Shown in pieces: positions 9,432 to 48,849 of a stretch of DNA of 64,000 bases. The notes beneath the pieces are model-generated. The model did no database searches. It was not told the DNA's origin and saw nothing but the letters and a program-made list of their open reading frames with translations. The translations under genes and the position numbers were made by a program. Source of the stretch: an uncultured Gammaproteobacteria bacterium (lineage in GTDB: Bacteria > Patescibacteriota > Microgenomatia > JAMCZE01). The DNA is taken from contig CAZXMM010000001.1 in assembly GCA_964641255.1 (NCBI GenBank), positions 681,795 through 745,794 on the forward strand, read 5' to 3'. Within the stretch, counting starts at the first letter, position 1. Each line of letters starts with the position of its first letter.

Positions 9432-11321
9432 ATGTCAAAACCCGAAGTTAAAGAAGTAAAAATCACCAAGACAGCCAGATATCAACCTTCAGAGCGTGAG
9501 CAGGAGCTTCTGACTAAATGGAAAGCTAGATTCAAACGTGCCAAGGAGTTTCGGGATCCGTATCAAGCCAAATGGCTACGGATGTACAGACTTTATCGAG
9601 CCTATCAACACAAACAAAACTACGCTTACAACACCCGTCTCATGCCTCCGATCGCTTTTGAAATAGTCAAAACTGTTGTATCCAGGCTGGCCACGGCAAA
9701 ACGCAAAACAAGAGTCATCCCAAGAGAAAAAGCAGATATTCAATCGACATCCCTCGGATCTTGGGCCGATTTAGTGAATTATGACTTTGACATCATCGAG
9801 TTAGCAAAGAAGCTGCCCAACTGGATTGAGTCATCAGTTTTGTACGGGAACGGGATAGTTAAGCTTGCTTGGAAAATAATTAACAGAAAACGGTCAAACG
9901 GCTCAATAAAAACTATTTACGATGACCCCACCATGATTCTCTGTGACTTGTGGGATTTTCTACCTGCTCCGGAAACTGAAGACCTCCAGGAAGGATGTCC
10001 CTGGCTTATTCACCGTATTGTTAAACCAAAAGAAAAGATTACTAAAGAAGAAGAAAAACGGGGTGATAACAAAATCTACAAGAATCTTGAGTTTTGTGAG
10101 CCTAAAGTAGTTGAGGACTGGAAGAAAGAGCGCTACGAGATTAACACCAAGAAAATGTCCCAAATTGATGGCGATATCAAAAAAGCTGAAACGGGCGAGC
10201 AAAAAGTGCTTCAGGTCAAAAATGATCAGGAAAAACAACTGGAACTCTGGGAGTGCTGGGACTACGAAGAGGATCAGCTGATAGTGATCGCCAATGGTGA
10301 AGTAGTTATTCGCGATGACGAGAATCCTTATCTTGATGTTAACAACGGCCACATTTTTGTGGATCTTCCTGATATGTCACTCCTTTGGGAATTCTGGGCA
10401 ACCGGCCACGTTGAACCCGTTGAAAGTACAATCATGGAAATTTCTGACCTACGGAACCAAAGAATGGATGATGTGGTGTTAATGCTCGACCCAGTGGTAA
10501 AAATCCGCAAGGATACCGGCATTACCAAAAATGACATCATTTTCTCTCCAGGGGCAGTTTGGGAACTACGAAAAATGGATGACGTGGTGATTGAACGACC
10601 GCCAGACATTAGCTTAATGGGCGTCAACGAAGACAAGTTGCTCCGTGATGAAATCTCAAGAACTCTTGCCCTAGGAGAATACTTGCAGGGATTACCACAA
10701 TCATCCGGTGAGCCACTTGGCAAAGTAGCAATGCTGTTAGGTCAGAGCAATCTAAGACTAAGCATGAATGCCCAAAACATTTCAAATGCTCTAACCGTTG
10801 TAGCAAACATTCTTATTCAGCTTAACCGTGAATTTATCGGAGAAGACAAACTCTATCGCATTGTTGGCAATAGTGTCGACTTTAAGGAGTTCAAGTCTGA
10901 GGATAAGAAAATCCAGGTAGACGCGATTGTTGAAGTTGAGCCGGTCATCCCACCGGATAAGCAGGCCAGACTTAACCAGATATTGCTTCTTTATGACAAA
11001 TTCATAGCTCAGGATAAACCTGATCCAAATAGTGTGGCTGATGTAAAACGTTGGTTAGTCCGCAAGCGTGCTCTACAGAAAATGATTCTGGAGGAACTCG
11101 ACCTCGACCAGTATGTCGACATTCTCCTTGGACCGGAAGTAGCTAAAATTGAGGAAGAAACCGAAGAAGTATTACCAAAAGGGGCGCCGGTAGCCCCTGT
11201 AGCGCCTTTTGAGAGGGATTTACCACCTCAGCCGACTAGTTCACCATCCAAATCAACAAACAACAAGATTCGGCAGTTAATAGGTAAAATTCCGCTCCTT
11301 GGCAAGGCATTGAGTTCTTAG
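9432..11321 (+). CDS. Phage portal (head-tail connector), T7-like
   Basis: 629 aa. N-terminal RDPYQAKW..YRLYRAY and LVNYDFDIIELAKKLPNWIESSVLYGNGIVKL resemble T7 gp8 regions (RAPYETRA..., NYIESNSYRVTLFEALKQLVVAGNVLL), recalled from memory. Confidence 0.55.
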   Translation: MSKPEVKEVKITKTARYQPSEREQELLTKWKARFKRAKEFRDPYQAKWLRMYRLYRAYQHKQNYAYNTRLMPPIAFEIVKTVVSRLATAKRKTRVIPREKADIQSTSLGSWADLVNYDFDIIELAKKLPNWIESSVLYGNGIVKLAWKIINRKRSNGSIKTIYDDPTMILCDLWDFLPAPETEDLQEGCPWLIHRIVKPKEKITKEEEKRGDNKIYKNLEFCEPKVVEDWKKERYEINTKKMSQIDGDIKKAETGEQKVLQVKNDQEKQLELWECWDYEEDQLIVIANGEVVIRDDENPYLDVNNGHIFVDLPDMSLLWEFWATGHVEPVESTIMEISDLRNQRMDDVVLMLDPVVKIRKDTGITKNDIIFSPGAVWELRKMDDVVIERPPDISLMGVNEDKLLRDEISRTLALGEYLQGLPQSSGEPLGKVAMLLGQSNLRLSMNAQNISNALTVVANILIQLNREFIGEDKLYRIVGNSVDFKEFKSEDKKIQVDAIVEVEPVIPPDKQARLNQILLLYDKFIAQDKPDPNSVADVKRWLVRKRALQKMILEELDLDQYVDILLGPEVAKIEEETEEVLPKGAPVAPVAPFERDLPPQPTSSPSKSTNNKIRQLIGKIPLLGKALSS

Positions 11322-11474
11322 TGGTAAATTTTTGCCTGAAGTCGTGTTACTTCTTTTGTATTTGTTTCCAGAGCCAAACACCCAAGAGTACTAAATCAAC
11401 CAAAACGATGATTGTAAAGAGACTTCCGAAAAGTCCGAATCCTCCCATCATACCTCCATATCGGCCAAAACCCA

Positions 11475-11699
11475 TCATAAATGGTCACCTCCTTTTATTA
11501 TTGCCTCCGTCTGTTTTGGAGGACATTTTGTATCTGCATAGGAACAAAAGACACAGCAAACACCTTCTTTGGGTTTCAACATGTCGCCGCAATTCTGACA
11601 TTTATAAAAATGCTGGCAGGCATCAGTTGGCATCTCGGCCTCCTGTGTCGTGTGGCAATTGGGACAAGTAAGATGTGCTTTTGTAACAACTTGATTCAT
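11475..11699 (-). CDS. GDCCVxC-domain small metal-binding protein
   Basis: 74 aa with CPNC, CQNCGD, GVCCVFC, a GDCCVxC-type cysteine pattern. Confidence 0.6.
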   Translation of the reverse strand: MNQVVTKAHLTCPNCHTTQEAEMPTDACQHFYKCQNCGDMLKPKEGVCCVFCSYADTKCPPKQTEAIIKGGDHL

Positions 11700-11711
11700 A
11701 AGCCAAGCAGA

Positions 11712-12176
11712 TCACTTCTGACTTTCCAAGTATATTTTCAAATTTATTCCCTCTTCCCGGATGTGCTTTCTGGCAGCAGCCGGTTCTACGAACAGGTTTG
11801 CAAGTCTATCAAGAATTCCGTATTTATCCCCATACTCGACATACGCAATCAGTCTCGATTTATTATCCGAAATTTTTTCTATCTGAAAATAGCCTTTTCC
11901 GGTTTTCAGTAGCGAGAAAGGGAAAGCCGGCTTATATTCTATATATTCGTTCGTCTTAATATCCGTAACTCTTGCAATCAGGTACAGGGGAAAGCCGCCG
12001 ATACGTTCCAGAAAATGAAATACACAACCCTTCTTTGATAATGTTCCTGAAATTGTTTTGCAGAAAACGTGGTCTTTGTGGTGCCATGTTTTGTAAAGCA
12101 GATCAATATGGGTTAAAAATCCGAAAACTGATTTGGCAGGAGCATTAATAAAAGTTTCTTCTTTTAGTGTAATCAT
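11712..12176 (-). CDS. SRPBCC (Bet v1/START-like) family protein
   Basis: 154 aa. Size and pattern fit a polyketide-cyclase/AHSA1-like fold. Weak call. Confidence 0.4.
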   Translation of the reverse strand: MITLKEETFINAPAKSVFGFLTHIDLLYKTWHHKDHVFCKTISGTLSKKGCVFHFLERIGGFPLYLIARVTDIKTNEYIEYKPAFPFSLLKTGKGYFQIEKISDNKSRLIAYVEYGDKYGILDRLANLFVEPAAARKHIREEGINLKIYLESQK

Positions 12177-12200
12177 ATTCTTATTTTCTCTTATCGGACA

Positions 12201-14420
12201 TTACTTTTGAATAGGTTCCGCGTTATTATCCGACGGTGCCTGTGGCTTGGGAATCTTTTTTAATGTTCTCGTATAAATCACCACTTTTGCATCCTTCATA
12301 AGTTTTGAGGAAAGCTGCTCGGAAAGCTGTGCGTGCTTCTCCTGAGTCAGACGTTCTTTAATAAATTCCTTCGAGTCTTCAAAGCTCAATTGTTCCGGCT
12401 CCGAACGGTCAAGGACTTCAACGATATAGATGTAGCCATTGGCCTCAAACGGCGTACCGATTTCTCCTTTGGGAATAGCCTGAACCTGCTCATGATATTG
12501 ATGTTTAACAATTTCTCCCATAAGATCCATTTCTTCCTCAACCCATTCTGTTACCTCGCCCCCCTTATCTTTGGTTTCTTCGTCTTCCGAATATTGCTTG
12601 GCAACAGAGGCAAAATCCTCTCCTTTTTTTAGTGGACCGGGAACGAGCTTTTTATATGCTTCGTTAGCTTTGTCGAAGGCTTTTTTATGCTCATCGTCGG
12701 TTGCGTTATCAGAGCCACCCGCACGGATGACAATCTGGCGGACTCTTGACTTAGCAGGTTTTATAAATTGTGATTTATTACGGTTGTAGTAATCCTCGAT
12801 TTCTTTATCTTCGATTTTAATTTTCTCATCGACTTCCTCCTGTTCAAGCATCTGAGCCAGGACTTTCAGGCGCATCTCATCTTTGCGCTCCTTTGTTTCA
12901 GTCTGGGATACCTGGCTTAAACTGTCTTCGTATAACAGCAGGCGCTCGATAATTTTCTCAACCAGTGCCTGCTTACCTTCAGTGCCGGCATATGAAGACA
13001 GAAACGAAAGCGGTAGTTCCTGATATTCTTCCCAGAATTCACCCAAAGTAAACCGTTTACCGTTGACGGTAAAGAGTGTCCTGTCGGCATTATCGGTATA
13101 GTATTTCTTTTCCGTCTCGATCAGGACTGCCGTTTGCACCTGTGAGCGGACTTCCTCAAAACTCTGCTGCCGTTCCGGCTGTTTGGAACTAAGTCTGGCA
13201 ATAACAAATGCGTCTTTGTCGGCAATAACATCGCTTATCTGCTCCGGATCCAGCCGGAAGATAGCTTCTTCATAACCAGGATCGTTTTCTCCTTTTGTCC
13301 TGGTTACTCCGGTCTGGGGAAGCGGAGAGCCGGTTATTTCCTGATACACCTGACCGAAGTCGCTTCCGGAGCGGATTTTGGATAAAGTCTGTTCGGCTTT
13401 TTCTTTAGCCTTCTTTTCATCAGTGCCTTTCGGAATGCGGATTTCGTAAACAACGGCTTGGGCTTTGACTAGATATTTATCTTTATTGGCATCATAGTAG
13501 TTACGCAGTTCCCAGTCGGCAGGGTCAGGAATAGCCAACACTGCCGGATCGCGGGTAATTGAGGCTCTATTTTTCAGGCCGGTAATGTAGTTCTGGACAA
13601 ACTGATCTTCCTTTTCGCTTTGCAGCTTCGTTTTTATTTCCTCACGTACGTCGGTCAGCGTTTTATCTCCGAAATCTTTTCTGTTGGCATCATAGTAGGC
13701 GCCGATATCACCCTCAGTTACTCCGAGTTGCCCTTTGTGCATCTGGGCATGAAGTTCATTCAGGTTTATTTCCTCAGTGATATGCTTCATCACATGGGAA
13801 AATTCTTTATCCTGGTCGGGTTTGCGGGTAGCCTGCCAGCGTTTGACGATTTCATCGGTGATCATTTCCTGGACGATCAGTGCATACCCTTGGGGAGACT
13901 TTAGCTGCTTTTGCGTTTCTTCGTCCTCAACAAGTGAAACCAGGTGTTTTTCAACATCTTCAATGGTGATTCTACCCCCGTCATATGCGGCAACGACGTC
14001 GGGAGCGGGCGGCCAGGGAGCAAAAATGTCTTCACGGAATCTGAAAACAAGGAAAGCGAGAACCACAATGACACCCAAAATAATTTTCTTCTTTTTAGAT
14101 AAGTGAATTTTGGGTAGAGGTAACCGTAATGGCTTACTTTCAGGCGGTTGCTCTCCGGCTTTTGTGGGTTCTATGGATTGTTCCGGATGAACTTCCTGAG
14201 GAGTAATTTCCTTCGGAATATCAACAACCTCCTTATCAAGTGTCTTTTTCCCGGATTGAATCCGCTCCGGTTTTTTTGGCAGAGGTTTCTGCTTCCGATC
14301 ACCACCGGAAAAACCCAGAGACTGCCGGATGTCAGTAAATACCTGACCCCAGCCCTCACCGGATTTGTCTTTAGCGGCTGCTTTCGGTTTGTGGTGGGAA
14401 GACATTGACTTTTGTTTCAT
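12201..14420 (-). CDS. Membrane-anchored periplasmic chaperone, PpiD/SurA-like (tentative)
   Basis: 739 aa, N-terminal TM helix (ILGVIVVLAFLVF), K/E-rich. Operon context with hflKC. Parvulin motif not clearly seen. Confidence 0.4.
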   Translation of the reverse strand: MKQKSMSSHHKPKAAAKDKSGEGWGQVFTDIRQSLGFSGGDRKQKPLPKKPERIQSGKKTLDKEVVDIPKEITPQEVHPEQSIEPTKAGEQPPESKPLRLPLPKIHLSKKKKIILGVIVVLAFLVFRFREDIFAPWPPAPDVVAAYDGGRITIEDVEKHLVSLVEDEETQKQLKSPQGYALIVQEMITDEIVKRWQATRKPDQDKEFSHVMKHITEEINLNELHAQMHKGQLGVTEGDIGAYYDANRKDFGDKTLTDVREEIKTKLQSEKEDQFVQNYITGLKNRASITRDPAVLAIPDPADWELRNYYDANKDKYLVKAQAVVYEIRIPKGTDEKKAKEKAEQTLSKIRSGSDFGQVYQEITGSPLPQTGVTRTKGENDPGYEEAIFRLDPEQISDVIADKDAFVIARLSSKQPERQQSFEEVRSQVQTAVLIETEKKYYTDNADRTLFTVNGKRFTLGEFWEEYQELPLSFLSSYAGTEGKQALVEKIIERLLLYEDSLSQVSQTETKERKDEMRLKVLAQMLEQEEVDEKIKIEDKEIEDYYNRNKSQFIKPAKSRVRQIVIRAGGSDNATDDEHKKAFDKANEAYKKLVPGPLKKGEDFASVAKQYSEDEETKDKGGEVTEWVEEEMDLMGEIVKHQYHEQVQAIPKGEIGTPFEANGYIYIVEVLDRSEPEQLSFEDSKEFIKERLTQEKHAQLSEQLSSKLMKDAKVVIYTRTLKKIPKPQAPSDNNAEPIQK

Positions 14421-15504
14421 TTCCTTCCAGTAATTTTAGATTAACCCGTTCTCCCGGTTTAACAATATACGTAACGATTCTGGGAAATATTTTCTCCATC
14501 CGTTCCAGGTACAGCCGGAAGCGAGTGACCTGCTCTCCGTAAATACTGCTGTTGGTTCTGTACTGCGTCAAAATCTCATTGAAGGCCACCGCTGAACCGC
14601 TGGCTTCATTGATTTGCGCAGTCGCTGAACTGCTGGCTTCGGTGATGAGCTTCTGCGCCTGACCACGGGCTTCCGGAATGACACTGTTTTTATACCCTTC
14701 GGCTTCATTGACAGTCTTGCTTTTATCCTCTCTAGCGCTTGAGACGTCACGGAACGCGTCAGCTACTTCGTCCGGCGGATAGGCCTTTTGAAAATTAACG
14801 CTGACCACAGCCAGACCGCTGTTATACCCGTCAAGCAGGGTCTGTGTCTCTTTCTGCAGCCGGTTCAAAACACTCTGGCGCTCCGAGGTAAGGATGTTAT
14901 CAACAGCTGTCTCTGCGCTCACTTTGGTCACTGCCGCCCGTACGGCATCCCGGACAATCTGATACGGCGCATAGTCAATATTAAACAAATAATCGGCGGG
15001 TTCCCTGATCTGGTACTGGACAATGACCTCGTAATCAACAATATTAGTGTCCCCGCTTAACACCTGCAATTTACCCGGTTGTTCGGGATGTTTGGGATGC
15101 TCCGGTTCGGGGCTCAGGAGGCCGACGCTTTCGCGTCTGACTTCGGAAACATTCACAATGGTTTCGCGGTCAACCGGCCACGGCAGACGATAATGCAGAC
15201 CTTCCGATACTTTGGGACTGACTACTTTGCCGAAACGGGTAACTACCGCCGCTTCTCCGGGTTTAACGATATAAATGCCGGAAAGAAAATAAACGGCCAC
15301 AATAATTTTGACAATATTCCCGGAAATATAGCGGGCATTGACGTGGGCAAAGGCCTGTTTGATGTCAGCCAGGGATGATGATCCGTCGGCTGACCGGATT
15401 TTGGCCATAACAGACTGAATCAACCGCACCAGTATACCGACAACCGTGAGTATGCGTTTGGTGATCTCTGCTAACAGTTGTTTTATTTTGTTCATTTGTT
15501 CCAT
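14371..15504 (-). CDS. hflK: HflK-like SPFH/band-7 protein
   Basis: TM helix then SPFH core (GEAAVVTRFGKV, DEVADAFRDVSSAREDK, YKNSVIPEARGQAQK). Confidence 0.75.
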   Translation of the reverse strand: MEQMNKIKQLLAEITKRILTVVGILVRLIQSVMAKIRSADGSSSLADIKQAFAHVNARYISGNIVKIIVAVYFLSGIYIVKPGEAAVVTRFGKVVSPKVSEGLHYRLPWPVDRETIVNVSEVRRESVGLLSPEPEHPKHPEQPGKLQVLSGDTNIVDYEVIVQYQIREPADYLFNIDYAPYQIVRDAVRAAVTKVSAETAVDNILTSERQSVLNRLQKETQTLLDGYNSGLAVVSVNFQKAYPPDEVADAFRDVSSAREDKSKTVNEAEGYKNSVIPEARGQAQKLITEASSSATAQINEASGSAVAFNEILTQYRTNSSIYGEQVTRFRLYLERMEKIFPRIVTYIVKPGERVNLKLLEGNETKVNVFPPQTESSR

Positions 15505-15568
15505 ATAAAGATACCGACACTTCTTTACTTATCTTTCTTCACGATTTCAGTGCTTCATCTCAATCCGC

Positions 15569-16501
15569 TTACGGATTGAGATATTTTAAGAGCTCTGAAT
15601 CTGAAGGAAGAATAAGCGTTGTGCCCTGATTTATGACCTTGTCGTATGACTCAAGCGTACGCAGGAACTGGTAAAATGCCGGATCCTTACCAAATGCCTG
15701 AGCATAAATCCGGATTGCCTGAGCCTCACCCTCTCCCTTAATCCGGTTTGATTCTTCCTGGGCTTTAGACAAAAGAGTGGTTTTCTCGGCATCTGCTTCG
15801 GCTCTGATCTTTGTTGCTTCTTCAGTACCCTCAGAGCGCAGCTGCCTGGCTATCTGCTGGCGTTCTGCGCGCATACGCTGAAATACGCTTTGTCTGTTTG
15901 CCTCAGGGAAGTTAAGCTGTTTGAGCCGCACATCGGCAACTTTAAAACCGTACGAGCGTGTACGCTCATCTGTTTGCTTGGTAAGACCCGCAAGCATTTC
16001 ATCCAGCTTCATCTGGCTTTGGTCGGTAGTGACCAGATTAGTCAACTCATACTGCGACAGTGCCACTCCGAGCTCGGACGTGAGAATATCGGATAGTCGT
16101 GATGATGCTCCCTGGGCATCTCTGACACTTTTGAAAAACTGTACCGGGTCATCTATCTGCCAGGTGGCATAGGCTTCTACTAAAATATTTTTCTTGTCCT
16201 TGGTCAGAAACTCCGTTTCGGTCAGATTATGGACCTGGATCCTTTTATCAAGTTTGATGAGATTTTGCAGCGGATCGGGAAGCTTGACATACAACCCCGG
16301 CTCTTTAATGGCGCGGACGGGACTGCCGAACTGTGAAACGATAGCGTATTGTGTCGCGTCTACCTGAAACGCAACCAAAGTTGAAAGAATCAGTAAAATT
16401 CCGACTCCTAAACCAATTAACATTTTCGGCTGACGCAGCATCTGCCAACTGATTCTGCTTCTTGCCTGATCTATGAATGATGATTGTGTTCTGTTTCTCA
16501 T
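15569..16501 (-). CDS. hflC: HflC-like SPFH protein
   Basis: Start moved to ATG at 16501 (GGAGGTG RBS, MRNRTQSS). The longer track ORF overlaps the upstream gene. YAIVSQFGSP and RIYAQAFGKDPAFYQFLRTLESY are HflC-like. Confidence 0.75.
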   Translation of the reverse strand: MRNRTQSSFIDQARSRISWQMLRQPKMLIGLGVGILLILSTLVAFQVDATQYAIVSQFGSPVRAIKEPGLYVKLPDPLQNLIKLDKRIQVHNLTETEFLTKDKKNILVEAYATWQIDDPVQFFKSVRDAQGASSRLSDILTSELGVALSQYELTNLVTTDQSQMKLDEMLAGLTKQTDERTRSYGFKVADVRLKQLNFPEANRQSVFQRMRAERQQIARQLRSEGTEEATKIRAEADAEKTTLLSKAQEESNRIKGEGEAQAIRIYAQAFGKDPAFYQFLRTLESYDKVINQGTTLILPSDSELLKYLNP

Positions 16502-16514
16502 AAATTCACCTCCT

Positions 16515-18068
16515 TTACGGCTGGGCAGTTTTTCCATTAGTAATCCACAAATCGGTGGAATTAGTTTCCACCCGCGGATCGAGAATGTATTTTTTAATGT
16601 TTGGCAATACTTTTTCCAGAGACTCAAGGTATAAGCGGGTACGGGTAACCTGGGGAGCATTCTGGTAGGCAGTGAGTTTTTTACTGAAACGTTCTGCTTC
16701 ACCGGTGGCAAGCGCGATCTTACTGGCTTTTTCCGCTTCTGCAGTGGTCACCTGTTTAGTAGCTTCTCCCCGGGCAACAGCGACTGTTTCGTTTTTATAC
16801 GCCAGGGCTTCATTCATATATGTGTTTTTGTCTTCTCTAGCACTGGCCACATCCAAAAATGCGTCAGCTACTTCGCCCGGCGGAGTCACCGAAAGCAGTT
16901 GAACATTGGTTACTTTTATTCCGGTGTTATGTTCTTTGAGTAAATTTTGCGTCCCGCTCGTAGTTTGTGCCAAGATCGCACTTCTTGAAGCGGTTAACAA
17001 ATCGTCGACACCTCTTTGAGCAACCGCGGCTCTAAACGCTGTTTCCGTCTCTTTGGCAAGTAAATTTTCCGGATTTTGGATGCTAAAAAGATAATCGGCG
17101 GGATTCGTAATCGTATACTGAACTGTTAATTTGGTATTAATAAGGTTCGTGTCACCGGTAAGCACTAAAGATGCGTCCGTCTGAACCTGGCGCACTTCGT
17201 CCACATTGACTCTGGCTATGGTATCAACCAGAGGAACCCGGGCATGCAGCCCTGGCCCGAACGAACCGACAACTTTTCCGAATCTGGAAACAACGGCCTG
17301 TTCGCCCATGGGAACGGTATAGACACCGGAAAGCAGGATAAAAAGAACCGCAATTCCTCCGAGGTACGCGAGCATCCGCTTATTATGCAAAAAGGCCAGA
17401 TGATGGTGTCCTTCAATATGATTGGGTAATGCCTGTTTGGTCCGCAGGGCATGAATGGCTGACTCGGCAATTTCCCAGCCGGAAGTAACGATCAGAACAA
17501 TCACAAATATCGCGGCCAGTTTATCCAGAGCAGGAAACCCAACGGCAGCAGCAATAAGCCCTACAACGACAAGAACCGAAGCATACAGATCCATCCGCGA
17601 ATGATATCCGCTGGCAATAAGGGAAAGGGAATTGGTGGCACGACCAACGAACTCTTTGTACCTTGCAGTGAAGTAGGTAATGGCTATAGTTAAAAATGCC
17701 CCGATGGTCACCAGCCAGATATTTCTGAGATCAGGTGTTTCTGAGGCGCCGGTTACTTCCCGGAAAATATCCAGCGCCGAGAAAAACATCAGACCGGAGA
17801 CGATCAGGGCAACGATATTTTCAATTGTTCCCGCCTGCAACCGACGTCTGGCTTCCCAGGCCGCAGATAAAAGCCCTAAAAGTACAAAGACGGAAACAAA
17901 GACATCCCCGACAGAATGCCAGGCACTGGCTTTAAGTGATAAACTACCCGATGAGGAAGCGAGGAAAAACTTGAGAAGGACGAGAATTACATTAGCAACA
18001 ATGGTGACGACAATGGTTTTTTCTTTCCGGTTCATAGTTAGGTAATATGAAATCTCTGGGCAGCACAA
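16515..18068 (-). CDS. Fusion: cation-diffusion-facilitator-like TM domain plus HflK-like SPFH domain
   Basis: N-terminal 6-TM region with CDF-like HxxxD motifs (AWHSVGD, SGYHSRMD). C-terminal GEQAVVSRFGKV...ADAFLDVASAREDK...YKNETVAVARGEATK is HflK-like. Confidence 0.6.
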   Translation of the reverse strand: MCCPEISYYLTMNRKEKTIVVTIVANVILVLLKFFLASSSGSLSLKASAWHSVGDVFVSVFVLLGLLSAAWEARRRLQAGTIENIVALIVSGLMFFSALDIFREVTGASETPDLRNIWLVTIGAFLTIAITYFTARYKEFVGRATNSLSLIASGYHSRMDLYASVLVVVGLIAAAVGFPALDKLAAIFVIVLIVTSGWEIAESAIHALRTKQALPNHIEGHHHLAFLHNKRMLAYLGGIAVLFILLSGVYTVPMGEQAVVSRFGKVVGSFGPGLHARVPLVDTIARVNVDEVRQVQTDASLVLTGDTNLINTKLTVQYTITNPADYLFSIQNPENLLAKETETAFRAAVAQRGVDDLLTASRSAILAQTTSGTQNLLKEHNTGIKVTNVQLLSVTPPGEVADAFLDVASAREDKNTYMNEALAYKNETVAVARGEATKQVTTAEAEKASKIALATGEAERFSKKLTAYQNAPQVTRTRLYLESLEKVLPNIKKYILDPRVETNSTDLWITNGKTAQP

Positions 18069-18083
18069 TAACTTATTATTTTA

Positions 18084-18096
18084 CTACAAATTGTAG
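18084..18096. promoter_or_regulatory. BlaI/MecI-family operator dyad CTACA-AAT-TGTAG
   Basis: Perfect 5+3+5 palindrome, identical 15-mer (TACTACAAATTGTAG) to the site at 31328..31342. Lies between the dsbA-like gene (18139) and the CDF-hflK operon start (18068). Confidence 0.45.
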
Positions 18097-18138
18097 GAGA
18101 TTTATCGGCTGAATTCAAGAGGTTGAAGTATCAGCAGT

Positions 18139-19071
18139 TTACCAAAATTTAAAACCCTTAAGTATCCGTTCATAAACCCGGTAGGGTTTGGGGCCGACTA
18201 AACCTTTACCGTTTATTAACACCAGCGGCGTGCCGTAGATATTGGTTTTCTCAAGCTCAATCCGTTGCGCAACGACGGCCGCCTGGGTTTGGGGAGACTG
18301 ACTGCAGGCATTGATTGCTGCCACATCATACCCCAACTCGCCAAGGATTTTTTCTACAAATTCTTTTTTGGAAATATCTTCCTTGGAGTTGGCAAAGAGT
18401 CTATCGTTTAACTGCCAGTATTTATTCTGATCCTGGTTATACGCACAGTAGCCGATCGGGAGGAGATACAGCATTTCCTCTTTGATGGGATAATGGGCAA
18501 AAGTGTAGTTAACCTGATTTTCAGAAATAAGTTTCTGGATAAGCGGGTATGCTTTTCTGGTATAGTCGCAGCTGTAACAACCAATGAGCACTACCGAATC
18601 CTTGACCCCTTTATCAACAGTTGGGAAAAGACTTAGATCAACGTTGGCAAGAGTCACCTTGCTCTCATCTCCAGCTCCGTCTACACAACTGCCGCCGGTC
18701 TGAGAAACTTTATTGTTTTCTCCTTTAGGATCCAGAGCGCAAAAGCCCGTTTTATTAAGTCCGTTACAGCTGCCGTACATGTAATAGTTGTACAATCCTT
18801 TGCCTGTCCAGAAAATGCTCGCAACGGTCGTGATAAACAAGATCCAGGAAAGCAACTCAAAGTGTCTGTTGACTATCCTGGCTGCAACAGCAGAACGGGA
18901 AAGTAGTGTCCCTACCAACTGTGCTTTCATCTTTTCTTTAAACCCTGTGGTGCAGGGACGAAGTGTGATCCGCCTAAAAACGCAATCAAAAGCCTCCCTG
19001 GCCAACCGCCGGTGAGAGGCGCTGAATATGCTGATAATTGATAAAGCGATAAACGCTAAAATACAAAACAT
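18139..19071 (-). CDS. Membrane-anchored thioredoxin-fold protein, DsbA-like
   Basis: Two N-terminal TM helices, CYSC (CxxC) motif, C-terminal YGTPLVLINGK cis-Pro loop region. Confidence 0.5.
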   Translation of the reverse strand: MFCILAFIALSIISIFSASHRRLAREAFDCVFRRITLRPCTTGFKEKMKAQLVGTLLSRSAVAARIVNRHFELLSWILFITTVASIFWTGKGLYNYYMYGSCNGLNKTGFCALDPKGENNKVSQTGGSCVDGAGDESKVTLANVDLSLFPTVDKGVKDSVVLIGCYSCDYTRKAYPLIQKLISENQVNYTFAHYPIKEEMLYLLPIGYCAYNQDQNKYWQLNDRLFANSKEDISKKEFVEKILGELGYDVAAINACSQSPQTQAAVVAQRIELEKTNIYGTPLVLINGKGLVGPKPYRVYERILKGFKFW

Positions 19072-19075
19072 AGGT

Positions 19076-20272: not shown

Positions 20273-20274
20273 AA

Positions 20275-35700: not shown

Positions 35701-35705
35701 ATATA

Positions 35706-36292: not shown

Positions 36293-36296
36293 GGAG

Positions 36297-38232: not shown

Positions 38233-38237
38233 AACAT

Positions 38238-38942: not shown

Positions 38943-38946
38943 ATAT

Positions 38947-40392: not shown

Positions 40393-40396
40393 ACCT

Positions 40397-41731: not shown

Positions 41732-41945
41732 ATTAGATAAGTCAGATTTAAAAGAGCTGCAATTAAGAAAGCAGATGATTAAGCAACATCAGCTGACAAT
41801 CCAAGCGCTTGATTCTCAGTTAGTCATGTGGCTTCTCGGCAAGTTTTTCAAATACGGCTTGGATAGTCAGAAAGAATACAACTTTGATGCTGTAACCGGT
41901 GAAATAACTGAAGTTACACAGTCCCAGAAAGGAGGTGGCTCCTAA
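41712..41945 (+). CDS. Hypothetical small phage protein
   Basis: Start at ATG 41712 after AGGAGGTCA. 77 aa. Confidence 0.3.
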   Translation: MSKKQTKLDKSDLKELQLRKQMIKQHQLTIQALDSQLVMWLLGKFFKYGLDSQKEYNFDAVTGEITEVTQSQKGGGS

Positions 41946-43012
41946 TGGCGACAAAACAATACGGCGGTTGGTATTGGCAACCTGATCAAAATAAAGCTCT
42001 CAGATGGTGGGGTACTGATTCTTCCGGCAAAGACATTTACACAACCGGCGATGAACCAGGCAAGCAACAATCCGTCAGCAATTTAAGTAGCGGTCTTTCT
42101 CAGGTTGGTGGTTCTAGTATCTTGGGTTTTGATGTAGGAACGCTCAATACTCGATTTCAAGACACTTATAAACAAGCTCAAGATTTATCATCAGATCTCG
42201 AAACCTATCAAACAAGGCGCTACGACGAAGAATATGGCAAAGCGGAACTTGGCAAACTTAAAGATACCATTAGCTCTTTGGATACAAGTATCGCAAGTGA
42301 AAAAAATGTTCGTGATGAGTCAGTCAGCAAGATCCGCAAAAATCCGGGCTATTCCGCAGCCACAATAACCGGTGAATCCGGAGAGGTTCAACGACTTGCC
42401 AATGCAAAAATTGGAAATCTCATTGAAGAACGCAATGCAAAAGCTGAAGATTACAACGCCCGCCTCGGAGAAATAACACGCAAAGTAACATCTGAAACTC
42501 AAGGCAAAGAAGCCAAACTTAACAATCTGCGCTATGACCTTCAATTTTTAGGTGGACTCCTCAATACATACAACCAGATTCGATCTTCCGAACTTTCCTC
42601 CGCCAAAGAGGATGAACGCTGGGAGCGGGAATTTGAACTCAAACTCTATGACGCTCAAACAAGCAGGTTAAGAGCTGGTGAAGGCGGTAGCGGAACTTAC
42701 GCTAAACAACAAGTCAAAGATGCATTTGGAAATGTGGTTGGTTTCTTCGACCCAACTTCGGGCAAGACTAATCTTTATGAGCAACCCTCGAGTCAATCAC
42801 AAACGACCACTGTAAATGAAGGCGACCTAAGAACAGAAATTAGATCTGCTTGGAAGCAGGGTTATAACGCTGACCAGCTCAAAACAAATCTCTCAGGAGT
42901 AAGTACAGATAAAGGAAAGAGTGCCACACAAATTATAGATGAAGAATGGCAACTCAAAAATCAACCAGGTGTGATGGGATTCTTAAGACGCTTATTTACA
43001 CCTGGAGTTTAA
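41945..43012 (+). CDS. Hypothetical internal virion protein
   Basis: 355 aa, coiled-coil-rich. Position matches the T7 gp14/gp15-like internal proteins. Confidence 0.35.
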   Translation: MATKQYGGWYWQPDQNKALRWWGTDSSGKDIYTTGDEPGKQQSVSNLSSGLSQVGGSSILGFDVGTLNTRFQDTYKQAQDLSSDLETYQTRRYDEEYGKAELGKLKDTISSLDTSIASEKNVRDESVSKIRKNPGYSAATITGESGEVQRLANAKIGNLIEERNAKAEDYNARLGEITRKVTSETQGKEAKLNNLRYDLQFLGGLLNTYNQIRSSELSSAKEDERWEREFELKLYDAQTSRLRAGEGGSGTYAKQQVKDAFGNVVGFFDPTSGKTNLYEQPSSQSQTTTVNEGDLRTEIRSAWKQGYNADQLKTNLSGVSTDKGKSATQIIDEEWQLKNQPGVMGFLRRLFTPGV

Positions 43013-43017
43013 TGCAT

Positions 43018-46000
43018 ATGGACAATTTTTTATCACAAATTAAGAAAAACATAACCTCGTCAATTCAAAATACGAGTCAAACTCTTGGTGGTATTTTTGG
43101 GAAATCGCAACAAGCAGCTTCCTCTCTAGTACGTTCTGGCTCTGAAAAAATTCAGGATATTCTAAAACCGCTCGAAAAACTAAAGCCTGAACAATACGAC
43201 ATCGCCATTCCAGGTCCCACAACCGGCTCCTACAAACCATTCAAAAATCTGTATGTAGAAGCGGCAGCACAAACACTTGGATTGGGTGCTAGAGATACAG
43301 ATGTACTTGAGCGATTGCCAAGTGCAACAATCGGAGCATTAAAAGGTGCCGGAGATGGTCTTGCCCAAGCCTTAACTTTTGGCTGGTGGAATCCGGAAAT
43401 AAAGTACGCCAATGACATCGAAAAAATGGCCGGTGACATGACGGAGGTGGAGTTTAATGTTTTAGGAACAATAGGAACTTTTGTGGTAGGAGGAGGTCTA
43501 GTTCAAGGAGCACTCAAAGGTGTTCCACTTCTTGGAAGAGTTGCTACAGTTGCTCCAAGAACATTTAGTCTACTTTCGAATGGACTTACTTTTGCAGGGT
43601 TAACCCAACTGCAAAAAGAAGAATCCTACAAAGATGCGCAGCAACGCGCCAAAGATTTTGTAAGCGATTTTGCCTTAGGTGGAGCTTTCTCCATAGCCGG
43701 AATGAAACCTTCATTTCTTAAATCCTCTGCGATTATCGGGCCAGCGACTTACGTTACTTCACTTATTAAAGGTGACTCCAATGAAGATGCTCTCAAAAAC
43801 ACCGCAGCAATGATTGGACTTCACTCACTTAACTTTGCCGTAGCAAAATACTTACCCAACAAATCTGCGGTAGAAAGTCAGATAGAAAAAGCGGCCAGTG
43901 AACAACTCAAAATAACCAAAAAACAAGCTCTCGAGTATCTTGGAGTAAATGAGACAGCAACTGCAGAGCAGGTCAAGCAAGCATGGAAAAATAAAGTAGT
44001 CGGTATTACTAAACAGTTTCCAGCTCAAGCCAACCAAACACCACAAGAAATGGGTCAATTTAATCAAGCTTGGAATACAGCCAATAGAGCCTATGAGTTT
44101 TTAGCAAAGGTAAGCAATCCCACTGGATATACTGGCAAGTCTTTCAGACAAGAATTTCAAGACCTTTACTACGACCTCTGGAAAAATGTTCCTGACAAAA
44201 GAGCATTGGTCATCAAAGCAGTTCGCAATATGCCTGCAGGGCTCTCAATCAGAGCCACACTCAACGAGGCCCAGAGAAGCGAAATTGTCACAGCTCTTGG
44301 AGGGCAAGAAACAAAAACCAGACTCGGCCGTGTTGCAGAATTAACTGATGCCGATTTGGTAACAGTAGCGATGGAAAACAAAATACCGGTTACTCCTTCA
44401 AAACAATCAACTCAACCAACTATTCAGAAAGAATCGATAATTCCTTCTGAACTAAAATTAAGTAGTCAAGAGCAAAAAGCTTTCAAAGCTACAGAGATTC
44501 GAGATAAATATCGAAGTGATGGTGAAATTGAACTAGAAAAGATTGAGCGAACGAACAAAGATGTATCACAGACAACTCTCATTCAAAAACGGCGCCAAGG
44601 TCAAATAGTTGCACCGGAGCAACCGCGAGCGGATGAGGCGAAAGATCCACCGCCTGGTAGTCCTCCTAGACCTCCCCAGGAAACACCTATTGGTTCTGAT
44701 TCACCACCGCCGGAAGGGAGTGCTTTAAGCCAGATCGATGCGATGGTTGGAAAGCTTTCTCCTGCCGCAAACCTCTTGGACAAGGCTAAAAAAGCAATTC
44801 AGGTTTTCCCACGTCTTTTTACTGACCGCTTCGCTCCTATTCGGGAGTTTGAAAACAAAGTAAGTAAACTGCAAGGCAAGCCTATCGATATCAACTCCAG
44901 TCCTTATGTGGGCGCCCGAATGTACGCGGGACGTTTTGGTATTGTTGAGGGTAGTTTCCGGGATCTGTATACCGCACTTCAACCTGTCAGAAAATTGCGG
45001 GCAGACTTTACCCGCTATGTACTTGCTCAAAGAACGGCTGAAAGAGCCGCCAGAGGTGTTGAAAATCCACTTGAGGTAACTCAAGAAACTGCAGAGAAAG
45101 CACTCCAGGAACTAAAAACTAAAGTGGGCGACAAAGCATTTAAAACATTTGAGCAGGTTGGTAACGGCATGCAAAATTGGGCAGTTAAAGCAATTCTCGA
45201 ACCCATGAGAGATGCTGGGATTTTAAGCAATAAAGCCTTCAACGCTGTTGTTGAGAAAAATAAGAACTGGCTTCCATTCCATGTTTTGGAATACATACCT
45301 ACGCTGGAAGAAGCAGACAAGATGGCGGTCGGCTCCGAAACATTTTCAGTGAGTAAACAAGGCGTTGTGAGTGCTCTTGAAGGAACAGACAAGGTCATTC
45401 GGGATCCATTTATCTCCGTAATAGACAACCTCACAAAAGCGGTCAGTCTTGTTGAACGAAATAAAGTAGCCTTGAAACTGGTAGAGCTTCGCAAGACTCA
45501 CCCTGATGCAACTAAAGGGTTGATTAGATTCTTACCCACCAAAGAAAATGCTCCGCAAGATTGGGAATCAATTAGCGTATTTATCGACGGCAAGGTAACG
45601 CGCTGGGCTGTGCCAAAAGAATTATCTGAAGCCATGCACGCCATGAGCCCTGCAGAGTCAGGTTTGATGGGTAAGTTAGTAATGATGTCTTCAAAAGCAT
45701 TTAAGGCAGGTACAACTACGCTCTATTTTCCATTCACCCTTTCCAATGCAGTACGGGACTATCAAACCGCAACAATGGTTTCCAAATATGGCTTTAATCC
45801 TGCAGTATGGCTATCAGGATTTAAAGACGGCTTCCGCTCGGCGTTTAAATGGGAATCCAAAGCCTATGACGAATTTATGAGAAATCAAGGTGGCTATGGG
45901 AGCTACATTGAATCAACCAAAGGTTTGTCAGTTGCCTCTGATCAATTATTCCGACCCAGATGGATGGAAAGAACGAAAGCTGTTCTTAATCCCTTTGAGT

Positions 46001-47259
46001 TAATAGGTAACTTCTCTGAAGCCATAGAACTTGCTCCGAGACTTGGAATCTATAAAAAAGCGCTCAGTAAAGGAGCCAGTCCTTTGGAAGCAGCATTTGA
46101 AGCACGAAACGTGACGGTCGACTTTGCTAAAGCAGGAGTTGAAGCCCGACTGATTAATATGTGGGTTCCGTTTGTAAATGCACGATGGCAAGGTTTACTA
46201 AATGTCACCCGTGTCATGAAAGACAATCCCGTCCGGACTGCTGCCAGAGCTCTTGCAATGACTGTTCTTCCCGGAATTGCTACTTACTTTTACAACGTTA
46301 TGAATCATGAAGACCTTTGGGACGATATTCCTCAGTGGGCAAAGGATACCTACTTCATCATTATTGTAGGTGAGGAAAAAGATGAAGATGGTAATAAACT
46401 TCCAAAAGTAATCCAGATCCCTAAAGGTGACGTAGGAACAATTTTCTTCAACCCTCTGATGTATTCGTTTGAGTATGTCCGTAAACAAGAACCTCAAAAC
46501 CTCTTCAAGCTCGGTCTGGAGTGGATGAGTCAGTTAGCTCCGGTTCCGTTTACAAGAGATGGTGAATTATCAGCTCAGGCCTTCTTCTCAGGAGCTTTGC
46601 CGCCAATTATTCGCACCCCTTTGGAAATAGCGACAAATACAAACTTCTTTACTGGATTTCCGGTTGTCCCAAGAAAACTGGAGAAGGTTGCCCCGTCAGA
46701 GCAATACGATAGGAGAACACCTGATTTGGCAATCACAATCGGCCGCGCTTTAGGAGTAAGTCCTATGAAACTAACCCATGCTGTCTATGGATTAACCGGA
46801 AGCTTGGCCAGAGAGCTTCTTAGTCCTGCTGATGTGCTAGGACTGACAATGGATCGTTTTTACCGAACTCAGGGCGGTGAGAAGCAACGTAGGGCCTGGG
46901 ACATCAAATATGAAGCAGAGGTAGGCTACAACACCACCCGACTGCAAATGAAGAAGCTGGTCGAAGCAGGTGACCTTCAGGGGGCACAGCAAATGGCACT
47001 AAGATGGAATGAGGAAGCAGAAAAACTAATTCCCCAAGTTGTTCCGCTTCTGATGAAAGATGATCCCAAAGAAGCATCGCTCTTCCAAAGCAGCATAACT
47101 TTTAACGCCAGCGATTTGCAACGCTTATTAAAAACAACTCTTCCTGGTGGTATTCCTCAGGAAACTGACAATGATGAACAGAAATCAACACTAATTCCAT
47201 TGAAGAATGGGTCCAATTCCACAGACAATCAAAGTATTAAGAGTTTGATTTATAGATAA
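43018..47259 (+). CDS. Large internal virion/core protein, 1413 aa, gp16-like by position
   Basis: Largest ORF of the module, before the lysis genes. Contains a J-domain-like segment without an HPD motif. Start trimmed to ATG 43018. Confidence 0.45.
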   Translation: MDNFLSQIKKNITSSIQNTSQTLGGIFGKSQQAASSLVRSGSEKIQDILKPLEKLKPEQYDIAIPGPTTGSYKPFKNLYVEAAAQTLGLGARDTDVLERLPSATIGALKGAGDGLAQALTFGWWNPEIKYANDIEKMAGDMTEVEFNVLGTIGTFVVGGGLVQGALKGVPLLGRVATVAPRTFSLLSNGLTFAGLTQLQKEESYKDAQQRAKDFVSDFALGGAFSIAGMKPSFLKSSAIIGPATYVTSLIKGDSNEDALKNTAAMIGLHSLNFAVAKYLPNKSAVESQIEKAASEQLKITKKQALEYLGVNETATAEQVKQAWKNKVVGITKQFPAQANQTPQEMGQFNQAWNTANRAYEFLAKVSNPTGYTGKSFRQEFQDLYYDLWKNVPDKRALVIKAVRNMPAGLSIRATLNEAQRSEIVTALGGQETKTRLGRVAELTDADLVTVAMENKIPVTPSKQSTQPTIQKESIIPSELKLSSQEQKAFKATEIRDKYRSDGEIELEKIERTNKDVSQTTLIQKRRQGQIVAPEQPRADEAKDPPPGSPPRPPQETPIGSDSPPPEGSALSQIDAMVGKLSPAANLLDKAKKAIQVFPRLFTDRFAPIREFENKVSKLQGKPIDINSSPYVGARMYAGRFGIVEGSFRDLYTALQPVRKLRADFTRYVLAQRTAERAARGVENPLEVTQETAEKALQELKTKVGDKAFKTFEQVGNGMQNWAVKAILEPMRDAGILSNKAFNAVVEKNKNWLPFHVLEYIPTLEEADKMAVGSETFSVSKQGVVSALEGTDKVIRDPFISVIDNLTKAVSLVERNKVALKLVELRKTHPDATKGLIRFLPTKENAPQDWESISVFIDGKVTRWAVPKELSEAMHAMSPAESGLMGKLVMMSSKAFKAGTTTLYFPFTLSNAVRDYQTATMVSKYGFNPAVWLSGFKDGFRSAFKWESKAYDEFMRNQGGYGSYIESTKGLSVASDQLFRPRWMERTKAVLNPFELIGNFSEAIELAPRLGIYKKALSKGASPLEAAFEARNVTVDFAKAGVEARLINMWVPFVNARWQGLLNVTRVMKDNPVRTAARALAMTVLPGIATYFYNVMNHEDLWDDIPQWAKDTYFIIIVGEEKDEDGNKLPKVIQIPKGDVGTIFFNPLMYSFEYVRKQEPQNLFKLGLEWMSQLAPVPFTRDGELSAQAFFSGALPPIIRTPLEIATNTNFFTGFPVVPRKLEKVAPSEQYDRRTPDLAITIGRALGVSPMKLTHAVYGLTGSLARELLSPADVLGLTMDRFYRTQGGEKQRRAWDIKYEAEVGYNTTRLQMKKLVEAGDLQGAQQMALRWNEEAEKLIPQVVPLLMKDDPKEASLFQSSITFNASDLQRLLKTTLPGGIPQETDNDEQKSTLIPLKNGSNSTDNQSIKSLIYR

Positions 47260-47265
47260 ACAGCT

Positions 47266-48333
47266 ATGGCAGATATAACAAGACCAATCGAACCATTTGA
47301 ACTCAATCAAGGCTTTGGAGAAAATCCTGCAGACTATGCCCGATTTGGACTCAAAGGGCATAACGGCTGGGACTTAAAAACAAAATTCCCCGATACACCC
47401 CAAGGCTTCCGCAACATTCTCTCTTCTTGGGCTTCTAAATTTTATGCACAGGGCAACGAAGGCAATGACGGCTTCGGGCTTTACTTTGAAGTTATCGTAC
47501 AGCTCTATAACAGCTACAAACTGACCTATGCCCACTGTAAATCCATTGAGAGTTTTGAAAATAAAAACGAAGGTGACACGATGGCTATCAGCGATAACAC
47601 CGGCAATAGTACCGGCAGCCACCTGCACCTTACGGTAAAACGTGGCCAACTCCAAAACGGAAAGTTTGTAAGTGACAACTATAACAATGGATATTTTGGA
47701 GCAATTAATCCTCAGGAGTTCTTTGATGAACTCAGAAAATATAAGAAAGAAAAAGGGACAGCTTCCGCTCCAGAAGGTTGCTTGGTACCAAACACACCCG
47801 AATGGCGAACCAAGTATGAGCAGGTAGTCTTTTCCGCAACTAAATGGGCCGATACTCTCAAGATTTTAGAGATCGCAGACGACCCTAACACTACCCCCAG
47901 CGACAGAATTAAAAGTGTAGTCGGAGGGTATAAAAGCAGAGAAACTGACCTATCTAACAAGCTAAATGAGAAGTCTATTGAAGTCAGTAAAGCCACCCAG
48001 GAGATAACCAATAGAGTCGAACAAGTTGGCAGACTTGAGAAGGATTTGCTAGAGAAGGATAAATACTATAAAGCCCTGATTGACGCACTGAATAAACAGC
48101 TCAAACACGGCTCAGATGCACTCCCCTTAGCTCAGGCTCGCATAGGGGTACTGGAAGACCAGCTGGACGAGGCAAACAAAGCCAAAGGCAGAGCACTTAA
48201 TGATGCTCAGGAAGCCAAGAGTCAGCTTGATGCGTGCCAAAAAGGTACGCTTGTTCCGACTCCTCAACTCATTTTCTCTCTCGTTGTTCAGTACTTCGGC
48301 AATAAATTACATAAAGGAGGTGACAAGGTATGA
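47266..48333 (+). CDS. M23-family peptidase-domain lysin with C-terminal coiled coil
   Basis: HNGWD (HxGxD) and GSHLHL (HxH) motifs. Confidence 0.65.
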   Translation: MADITRPIEPFELNQGFGENPADYARFGLKGHNGWDLKTKFPDTPQGFRNILSSWASKFYAQGNEGNDGFGLYFEVIVQLYNSYKLTYAHCKSIESFENKNEGDTMAISDNTGNSTGSHLHLTVKRGQLQNGKFVSDNYNNGYFGAINPQEFFDELRKYKKEKGTASAPEGCLVPNTPEWRTKYEQVVFSATKWADTLKILEIADDPNTTPSDRIKSVVGGYKSRETDLSNKLNEKSIEVSKATQEITNRVEQVGRLEKDLLEKDKYYKALIDALNKQLKHGSDALPLAQARIGVLEDQLDEANKAKGRALNDAQEAKSQLDACQKGTLVPTPQLIFSLVVQYFGNKLHKGGDKV

Positions 48334-48593
48334 ACGACTTTTACCCTGAATGGAAAAAAGTAATCTGGCGTTTTGTCAGAATTTTCATTTCCTCATTTCT
48401 ATTTACCGGATCGCTCGTGCTGGTAAACGCCCAACCGGAATCCTTATCCAGTTGGAATAGCTTCCTAAACACTCTGGTAGTGCCATTTGCAGTCTCTGGT
48501 GGAATTGCAGGACTCAATGCGGTAGGGAAGCTTCTACGAGACGTTTTCGGCTCAGAAGATAAAGACAGCCTTATTGATAAATTGATCTTTTAA
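48330..48593 (+). CDS. Holin-like two-TM protein
   Basis: 87 aa, two hydrophobic helices, overlaps the lysin stop (ATGA). Confidence 0.4.
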   Translation: MNDFYPEWKKVIWRFVRIFISSFLFTGSLVLVNAQPESLSSWNSFLNTLVVPFAVSGGIAGLNAVGKLLRDVFGSEDKDSLIDKLIF

Positions 48594-48597
48594 ACCT

Positions 48598-48849
48598 ATG
48601 ACGGAAAACGAGCCAGTAGATACTGTCAAAATGCTTGAGCGCGTAGCCAAACTCGAAGAACGGGTCGATGGCGGGTTTGGCTATGTAAACAAGGAATTGA
48701 AAGAGATAAAAGAAAATCATCTCCACCAACTTCAGGCTGACGTGAGCGATCTGAAAGTAAAAGTGAGTACCTTGGCGGTGAAGATTAGTATTGCGGCTGC
48801 AATAGCGACAATAGCAGGAGACTTTGTTTTTCGCCTTATATTTAAGTAG
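48598..48849 (+). CDS. Small coiled-coil protein with C-terminal TM (spanin/holin-accessory-like)
   Basis: 83 aa, C-terminal ISIAAAIATIAGDFVF. Confidence 0.3.
   Translation: MTENEPVDTVKMLERVAKLEERVDGGFGYVNKELKEIKENHLHQLQADVSDLKVKVSTLAVKISIAAAIATIAGDFVFRLIFK

Follow-up and report, generated by a model that had tools for sequence, protein, structure and literature searches.

Large gene cargo on both sides of the portal gene in a probable podovirus prophage of a Patescibacteria chromosome

Gene content of the locus

We analyzed a 64-kb stretch of bacterial DNA from contig CAZXMM010000001.1 (referred to here as the window) that holds much of a probable prophage with large blocks of cargo genes on both sides of its portal gene. 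Open reading frame (ORF) listing combined with Pfam, PHROG, and PADLOC scans divided the window into five parts: a left cargo on the minus strand, predicted to be a DISARM class 2 defense system (positions 1 to 9017); a portal-like protein of 629 amino acids (aa) on the plus strand (9432 to 11321); a right cargo of ~20 cellular-type genes on the minus strand (11347 to 31324); a phage head, tail, and lysis module on the plus strand (31541 to 48849); and ordinary chromosome from ~49.5 kb to the window end, which encodes UppS, tRNA-Arg, tRNA-His, hydrolases, glycogen synthase, glycosyltransferases, and GH57, with housekeeping genes from ~50.9 kb. The original prediction had set the portal apart from the remaining late genes, and gene calls confirmed this anatomy, with 20.2 kb of opposite-strand, cellular-type genes between the two. 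It had given the intervening block as 19 minus-strand genes at 11475 to 31324; the strand and the cellular character of these genes held, and their number and left boundary are revised to the values above.

A 950,062-bp NCBI contig was found to encode the proteins of the window, and the host is a Microgenomates-type member of the Patescibacteria, or candidate phyla radiation (CPR), with a chromosome of ~0.95 Mb. More than 170 homologs of the portal (57 to 96% identity) lie almost entirely in Patescibacteria/CPR, on contigs of up to 0.9 Mb, and every informative host name belongs to this group: Woese-, Davies-, Gottesman-, Roizman-, Shapiro-, Ames-, Beckwith-, Levy-, Moranii-, and Parcubacteria. 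Their distribution is patchy: a scan of 185,579 species genomes for the portal family returned 37 loci. Portal identity between Microgenomates-type and Parcubacteria-type elements is still 57 to 60%, which is high for a phage structural protein in hosts so divergent. Several portal-carrying GTDB records are labeled Gammaproteobacteria or Pseudomonadales and are probably mislabeled CPR bins.

The 629-aa protein matches PHROG 332 and 156, and its own score against the Pfam family SU10_portal is 25.8 bits, under the cutoff of 30. Among 21 members of its family, 17 match SU10_portal (PF23899; best E value, 1.6e-9) and 10 match P22_portal, and the family profile matches a solved structure named "Portal protein" in the PDB (9k09_D; E value, 1e-4). 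The gene lies between the large terminase gene (TerL) and the scaffold and capsid genes in relatives. No tblastn match to the portal was found in cultured phages, and the protein has no match to the T7-type family PF12236, its matches falling in the SU10 and P22 portal families. An AlphaFold2 model built from a 21-sequence alignment had a mean predicted local distance difference test (pLDDT) score of 46.8, too poor for a fold search. Portal homology in a hidden Markov model (HMM) search had been named beforehand as a test of the assignment; the protein's own score is subthreshold, the family matches and synteny are supportive, and we accept the protein as a predicted portal of the SU10/P22 type.

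The second block of phage genes, all on the plus strand, opens with three small, conserved proteins of the virion module (132, 108, and 84 aa) and one of 290 aa (31541 to 33411). The 132-aa protein matches PHROG 5707, orthologs occur in the same order in relatives, and the position of the 290-aa protein suggests that it is the scaffold. The major capsid protein (389 aa; 33451 to 34620) matches SU10_MCP (PF17236; 152 bits) and, in the PDB, 9in6_M (E value, 8e-20) and SU10 7z45_A (E value, 0.0035); it also matches capsid genes of cultured phages, at identities of at most 31%. Both a portal and an HK97-type major capsid protein are present in the element. Farther downstream are proteins of 203, 98, and 195 aa, a 103-aa KH-domain protein, and a 554-aa protein with a C-terminal Amidase_2 domain (34784 to 38232), followed at 38238 to 43012 by a 234-aa head-to-tail adaptor (SU10_adaptor; PF24175), a 481-aa tail protein, a 444-aa tail fiber assigned by PHROG matches, and proteins of 77 and 355 aa. 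The 481-aa tail protein gave no PDB match by sequence, and no nozzle or tail-needle match was found. A giant LPD38-domain protein of ~1,413 aa (43018 to 47259; PF18857, 86.7 bits; PHROG 9854) is likely an internal or ejection protein. The module closes at 47266 to 48849 with a 355-aa M23 peptidase carrying a coiled-coil tail, an 87-aa protein with two hydrophobic membrane-span-like stretches, and an 83-aa protein with a C-terminal hydrophobic anchor, the last two being holin and spanin candidates. This module had been described as T7-like; capsid, adaptor, and portal match SU10/Kuravirus Pfam families instead, and no single-subunit RNA polymerase was found in the window or in the related-element stretches that were fetched and annotated. 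Beyond it, on the minus strand, a MazE/AbrB-like gene (48852 to 49127; PF04014) of antitoxin fold, with no evident toxin partner, is the last conserved gene of the element here and in the related loci L073 and L074.

The left cargo runs on the minus strand from a partial DrmB that extends past the window start (PADLOC, 257 bits) through DrmA (1386 to 4727; PADLOC, 752 bits) and a NERD-helicase (4741 to 6456; Pfam NERD) to DrmE (6459 to 9017; PADLOC, 40 bits; Pfam DrmE_C). PADLOC found the remainder of DrmB, DrmMII (376 bits), and Vsr just left of the window (L044:13409-16683, where L044 is the 10 kb to the left on the same contig). Pfam also reports MZB in this locus. With DrmA, DrmB, DrmE, and DrmMII adjacent in one locus, this cargo is predicted to be a complete DISARM class 2 system; together with Vsr it spans ~11.4 kb on the strand opposite to the portal. 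At its right edge, divergent from the leader of the portal gene (see below), lies a 61-aa HTH_17/MerR-like gene (9036 to 9221, minus strand; PF12728), which appears as a gene call in L107 and L108. In L013, where the defense cargo is different, a copy with 80% identity sits at the corresponding position, and the gene may be part of the slot boundary rather than of the cargo.

The right cargo, 20.2 kb in the window and opposite in strand to the phage genes, has its own BlaI/BlaR1-like regulator pair. In window order, its minus-strand genes encode a 43-aa membrane peptide; a Cys-rich, GDCC-like product (ORF 11478 to 11702); a 154-aa protein; a double peptidyl-prolyl isomerase (PPIase), two SPFH proteins, a CDF-SPFH fusion, DsbA, and a class V aminotransferase of the cysteine-desulfurase type; a P-type ATPase (20275 to 22179), cytochrome b5, DUF4340, a GldG-like ABC auxiliary protein, an ABC ATPase, and DsbA; and finally an HMA metallochaperone (27842 to 28006), a DsbD-cupredoxin protein, DsbA, a BlaR1-like M56 peptidase, and a BlaI-like repressor of the BlaI/CopY family (30944 to 31324). 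These assignments come from Pfam matches and gene calls. The island includes three SPFH/Band-7 proteins, one of them fused to a CDF cation exporter, and three DsbA-like thioredoxins, and its P-type ATPase, of the Cd/Zn type in one source, has many close CPR homologs. From these predictions, the island presumably functions in metal efflux, thiol redox, and membrane quality. The Cys-rich ORF at 11478 to 11702 (74 aa, minus strand), left uncalled as a gene, has a GVCCVFCSY motif and lies at the cargo edge nearest the portal; we take this motif to resemble those of metal-associated GDCCVxC proteins.

Gene order in related elements

Synteny was assessed by tblastn over ~70 related loci. At the ~35 loci whose portal is 72% or less identical to that of the window, the portal and the next structural gene are 0.1 to 1.3 kb apart. 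At portal identities of 74 to 75% the gap is 0.33, 3.3, 5.6, 5.9, or >10 kb, and at 83% or more (13 loci with enough sequence) it is never below 6.3 kb (6.4, 8.9, 9.2, 9.2, or >10 kb), compared to 20.2 kb in the window itself. Every one of the close relatives has variable cargo on both portal flanks, with right slots of 3 to >20 kb. Because the distant relatives are contiguous, the phage module was originally a single piece, and the split appears to be an insertion at a hotspot. The proposal that one phage late module is interrupted by cargo is therefore borne out by the unsplit relatives.

The gene sets found at these positions to the left and right of the portal are unrelated to one another, as is the case at prophage accessory-gene hotspots. 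In place of DISARM, the left slot of relatives holds a PLD-SNF2 helicase accompanied by a type IIG enzyme and DUF4365, type I restriction-modification plus SIR2-HerA, or a type III restriction enzyme; in some relatives it is empty, with only ~150 nucleotides (nt) between the upstream gene and the portal. The right slot contains, in other relatives, a reverse transcriptase of the diversity-generating retroelement (DGR) type with Avd, a 1,530-aa protein, a 1,403-aa protein, or an ABC transporter with a P-type ATPase and DsbD. DGR parts (bAvd and reverse transcriptase) occur in several relatives, either in the right slot or upstream of the portal (L011:14301-16072, L013:18882-20291, and L006:2145-3581).

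The junctions that flank the right cargo recur in separate assemblies. In an Amesbacteria locus (L042), the portal is followed by the PPIase and SPFH genes as in the window, and in a groundwater locus of the Beckwithbacteria type (L104), the island adjoins orthologs of the 132- and 108-aa phage genes, again as in the window; the L104 cargo exceeds 21 kb owing to extra genes. In both loci the island is part of a prophage. These junctions bear on the concern, raised by the metagenomic origin of the assemblies, that an assembly chimera or a chromosomal rearrangement mimics an insertion. The portal-to-PPIase junction is present in SRR14932608 as well as in the Amesbacteria locus, and the junction between BlaI and the 132-aa gene in SRR14932608 as well as in the groundwater locus. 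A single inversion, moreover, would not leave both halves of the module in the same orientation, as they are here. We consider an artifact or rearrangement extremely unlikely.

The island also exists away from phage genes. On a 508-kb contig (L103), the same island, from BlaI to the PPIase, is present at 61 to 92% amino acid identity (81 to 92% for most genes), with GreA and an rve_3 transposase on one side, a two-component system on the other, and no phage gene among these neighbors. Since the island occurs there without flanking phage genes, it is cellular or mobile DNA with an independent existence that was captured in the phage slot. Such a cellular block in a related genome had been named in advance as a finding that would count against the split module. 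It was found in L103, and it speaks to the origin of the cargo only; the split is not undone by it, because distant relatives keep the unsplit ancestral order. A distant copy of the island (L105:17985-19952) lies beside a 437-aa serine recombinase and a homolog of the gene that normally precedes the left slot, an arrangement that hints at other mobile contexts for the island.

Taken together, the window contig and the relatives show a common backbone. It begins with a serine integrase, DUF3800, an ImmA/XRE repressor pair, early genes, a Dcm methylase, and a ParB-methylase; continues with a probable small terminase subunit (TerS), TerL, a sigma-like factor, proteins without known function, the left slot, the portal, and the right slot; and ends with the small proteins, scaffold, capsid, tail, LPD38 giant protein, M23 peptidase, and holin-like proteins. 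Related phages could exchange cargo by recombination in the conserved flanks of the slots, and the cargo presumably serves the lysogen through phage defense and through tolerance of metal or envelope stress.

Leader motifs, left arm, and extent of the element

The original prediction that both halves of the module carry the same upstream leader motif proved to be correct. The window contains exactly two copies of the motif GCCTAACGAA-N3-ATCGGGGCT, one at 9347 and the other at 31449, compared to a chance expectation of 0.02. Leader 1 (9347 to 9420, plus strand) consists of an invariant 22-nt box (9347 to 9368), a hairpin (9363 to 9410), and a U-run, and ends 11 nt before the portal ATG. Leader 2 (31401 to 31529, plus strand), upstream of the ATG at 31541, consists of a promoter match (31401 to 31429), the box (31449 to 31470), a 20-bp hairpin (31466 to 31519), and a U-run. 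Folding z-scores of the hairpins were -4.8 for leader 1 and -7.9 for leader 2, and compensatory changes affect 9 of the 19 hairpin pairs across 20 sequences. Rfam gave no match at either leader. Sigma-70-like hexamers lie ~20 nt upstream of the box, with TTGACA-18-TACAAT in contiguous relatives and TTGAGA-17-TAGACT at 31401 to 31429 in the window. The leader is kept at both sites in relatives (L004, L008, L013, L017, L020, L035, L037, L047, L049, L055, and others), including contiguous ones, in which just 2 kb separates one copy from the other. The regions at 9230 to 9431 and 31380 to 31540 resemble an antitermination or attenuation leader.

The portal gene thus forms one predicted unit and the other structural genes a second, and each is headed by its own promoter, invariant box, and terminator-like hairpin. 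The cargo replaces a spacer of ~65 to 70 nt between the preceding stop codon and the leader promoter. Because each unit has its own leader, this spacer could take up foreign DNA without late expression being broken. We infer that late transcription would be coordinated in trans by conditional read-through of the leader hairpin, as in lambda-type antitermination, and such read-through would explain how 20 kb of foreign DNA is tolerated between the units. As a reader of the box, we considered the phage sigma-like factor; this candidate is weakened by L004, L020, L037, and L055, which have the box and in which no sigma gene was detected between TerL and the portal, and also by the canonical sigma-70-type hexamers upstream of the box. 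The structural module includes a KhpA-like KH-domain (RNA-binding) protein (36306 to 36617, plus strand), a homolog of which adjoins the ParB-methylase gene in other subfamilies (L021, L028, L069, and L092). It is a possible partner of the RNA leader.

Left of the window, the rest of DISARM is followed by phage genes in the portal orientation, among them YceG, a sigma-70 r2/r4 protein, and several of no known function. TerL, a GpA-type large terminase of 524 aa (GpA_ATPase), is encoded on the window's own contig, ~8.4 kb to the left of position 1. The statement that integrase and terminase are lacking is accurate for the window, and for TerL this reflects where the window was cut. Among the listed members of either 90% cluster, no TerL with the known C terminus from the window contig was found. 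The most complete picture of the left arm comes from IMG/VR 3300038436_000160, a 58,954-bp relative with a 92% identical portal (~5 kb of its structural module falls outside the fetched stretches). This element begins, on the minus strand, with a large serine recombinase, DUF3800, an ImmA-like M78 peptidase, and an XRE repressor; continues with early genes, Dcm, ParB-methylase, a probable TerS, TerL, a sigma-like factor, and proteins without known function; and ends with 9 to 10 kb of cargo, the portal, 8.9 kb of cargo, structural genes, the M23 peptidase, and the MazE-like gene. A lysogeny block of serine recombinase and ImmA/XRE is located at the left end of seven related elements, and this block in relatives indicates a temperate phage layout. 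In a Woesebacteria locus (L019:3154-6755), a serine integrase, DUF3800, ImmA, and XRE lie only ~3 kb upstream of the portal, and TerL is absent from the interval, which represents a different arrangement or a rearranged element.

On the right, homology to L073 and L074 stops at ~49,420 to 49,447 (blastn endpoints), and the DNA beyond differs between elements; the right prophage end probably lies within this interval. In the chromosomal DNA beyond, tRNA-Arg(TCT) at 51678 to 51753 was found by ARAGORN only and was absent at the Rfam gathering threshold, and tRNA-His at 52034 was found by both. Summing a left arm of ~18 kb, 11.4 kb of DISARM, 1.9 kb of portal, 20.2 kb of right cargo, and 17.9 kb of structural genes yields an estimated element length of ~69.5 kb, or ~7% of the chromosome.

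Nature of the element and comparison with known systems

Selection on the virion genes was estimated from pairwise Nei-Gojobori ratios of nonsynonymous to synonymous divergence (dN/dS) between the window and other cargo-bearing elements. For the portal, capsid, adaptor, tail proteins, and M23 peptidase, dN/dS was 0.01 to 0.11, with dS of ~1 or saturated, and the structural genes contain no internal stop codons. Intact virion genes at saturated dS exclude an eroding remnant. Of the three options left by the original prediction, a degraded prophage is at odds with these values, and a phage-derived particle locus with other findings: a gene transfer agent (GTA) with the patchy distribution and with the integrase and repressor modules of relatives, and a tailocin with the presence of capsid, portal, and TerL. 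The best fit is the third option, in which a phage has picked up an unusually large host-like island. We consider it likely that the element is an integrated temperate podovirus in a Patescibacteria chromosome, that the window shows its right two-thirds, and that it belongs to an SU10/Kuravirus-like phage family widespread in CPR bacteria.

Several observations weigh against this interpretation. First, the estimated ~69 kb is 1.7 to 1.8 times a cargo-free backbone of ~38 to 40 kb, which makes packaging in the same capsid doubtful. Second, the integrase and the left end of this prophage are deduced from relatives. Third, no att sites or terminal repeats were found; for direct terminal repeats, none were present in five IMG/VR contigs, of which the 60,421-bp contig was covered up to the last 167 bp at one end. 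Serine integrases leave no long repeats. Finally, in some relatives the leader is present but no sigma-like gene was detected.

The first and third of these observations would be expected if the cargo had made the genome unpackageable, leaving an immobile chromosomal island that is kept for its cargo and whose virion genes have not yet decayed. Against such a grounded prophage, the cargo-bearing state is common to a whole clade at saturated synonymous divergence, yet the genes are intact at the low dN/dS given above. Too little time for decay is therefore no explanation. The cargo also differs between clade members, so the slots are still active. We regard this explanation as unlikely.

Purifying selection on virion genes despite very large inserts could instead reflect domestication, that is, a phage-derived particle system (GTA-like, or a device for protein or DNA delivery) that is kept by the host and is no selfish virus. 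The unusually conserved portal across CPR classes and the presence of the LPD38 polyvalent protein are in keeping with this idea. The patchy distribution (37 loci in the genomes scanned) is not, and relatives have the full set of temperate-phage functions, with a serine integrase and ImmA/XRE as well as TerL and genes for lysis; the DNA past the right end differs between elements, and the presence of capsid and portal rules out a tailocin. We judge domestication to be very unlikely.

For an integrated temperate podovirus, the question of head capacity then arises. Cargo-laden family members measure 54 to 70 kb, and related capsid proteins occur in phages of 39 to 58 kb. The SU10 genome is reportedly ~77 kb. 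If cargo-laden members exceed the ancestral capacity, the family may change head size, as the prolate SU10-type capsid suggests, or it may form transducing particles; we put this forward tentatively and with low confidence. In the second case, and with similar reserve, the particles would be vehicles that move 10- to 25-kb defense and metal resistance islands between ultrasmall CPR genomes, the phage's own genome not being packaged whole. A further speculation, also of low probability, is that in either case late expression is held together across the inserts by the promoter-box-terminator leader, via antitermination.

CPR phages are barely characterized, and host genomes of ~1 Mb have little spare room. 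Here, one prophage would account for ~7% of a chromosome and bring with it what is predicted to be an entire DISARM system, along with a metal, redox, and envelope island of 20 kb. For CPR bacteria, temperate phages may thus be a main route for acquiring and trading large sets of adaptive genes. The portal-flanking slots and the leader provide a testable model of how a late operon tolerates large inserts, and metagenomes could be screened for the phage family and its cargo with the leader as a simple sequence marker.

Prophages in Microgenomates have been known since 2019, and (pro)phages of Roizmanbacteria measure 27 to 31 kb, one of them with a siphovirus-type tail (PMC6509639). A 2025 survey found groundwater Patescibacteriota phages to be mostly temperate and to carry ABC and P-type transporter genes (PMC12911398). 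The element described here shares with those reports a temperate Caudoviricetes phage in Microgenomates and the presence of ABC and P-type transporter genes. Our literature search returned general CPR phage papers only and no earlier description of the family, of portal-flanking slots, or of the leader; the CPR phage family is apparently undescribed.

Among cultured phages, the closest comparison is with Escherichia phage SU10 and Kuravirus. SU10-type capsid, portal, and adaptor families are present (PF17236, PF24175, and, in 17 of the 21 relatives, PF23899), and both phages have a short-tailed virion module. In contrast, the similarity is remote (capsid E value, 0.0035), no match to a nozzle or tail needle was found, the terminase is GpA-type, and the host is of another phylum. 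SU10 is lytic, whereas the phage here, as read from its relatives, is temperate with a serine integrase. The related phage phiEco32 encodes a sigma-like factor, as this phage does. The head of SU10 is prolate (PMC9509320). By its protein families, the phage is best placed as a distant structural relative of SU10/Kuravirus and not as a member of the genus. In its cargo, the left slot resembles DISARM class 2 in having DrmA, DrmB, DrmE, and DrmMII all adjacent, but here the system lies inside a prophage slot and has an extra NERD-helicase and a Vsr nicking endonuclease embedded in it.

Accessory-gene hotspots of temperate phages are well known from P2 and P4 and from the lambdoid morons. Like these, the element carries variable, independently transcribed genes at fixed sites between core genes, one slot holds different defense systems across relatives, and the cargo is presumably expressed in the lysogen. 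It differs from them in the location of its two slots, on either side of the portal gene and within the late structural region, in its CPR host of ~1 Mb, and in its cargo of up to 20 to >21 kb, or ~45% of the element for the two slots together. The element is a large example of this known phenomenon and not a new kind of element.

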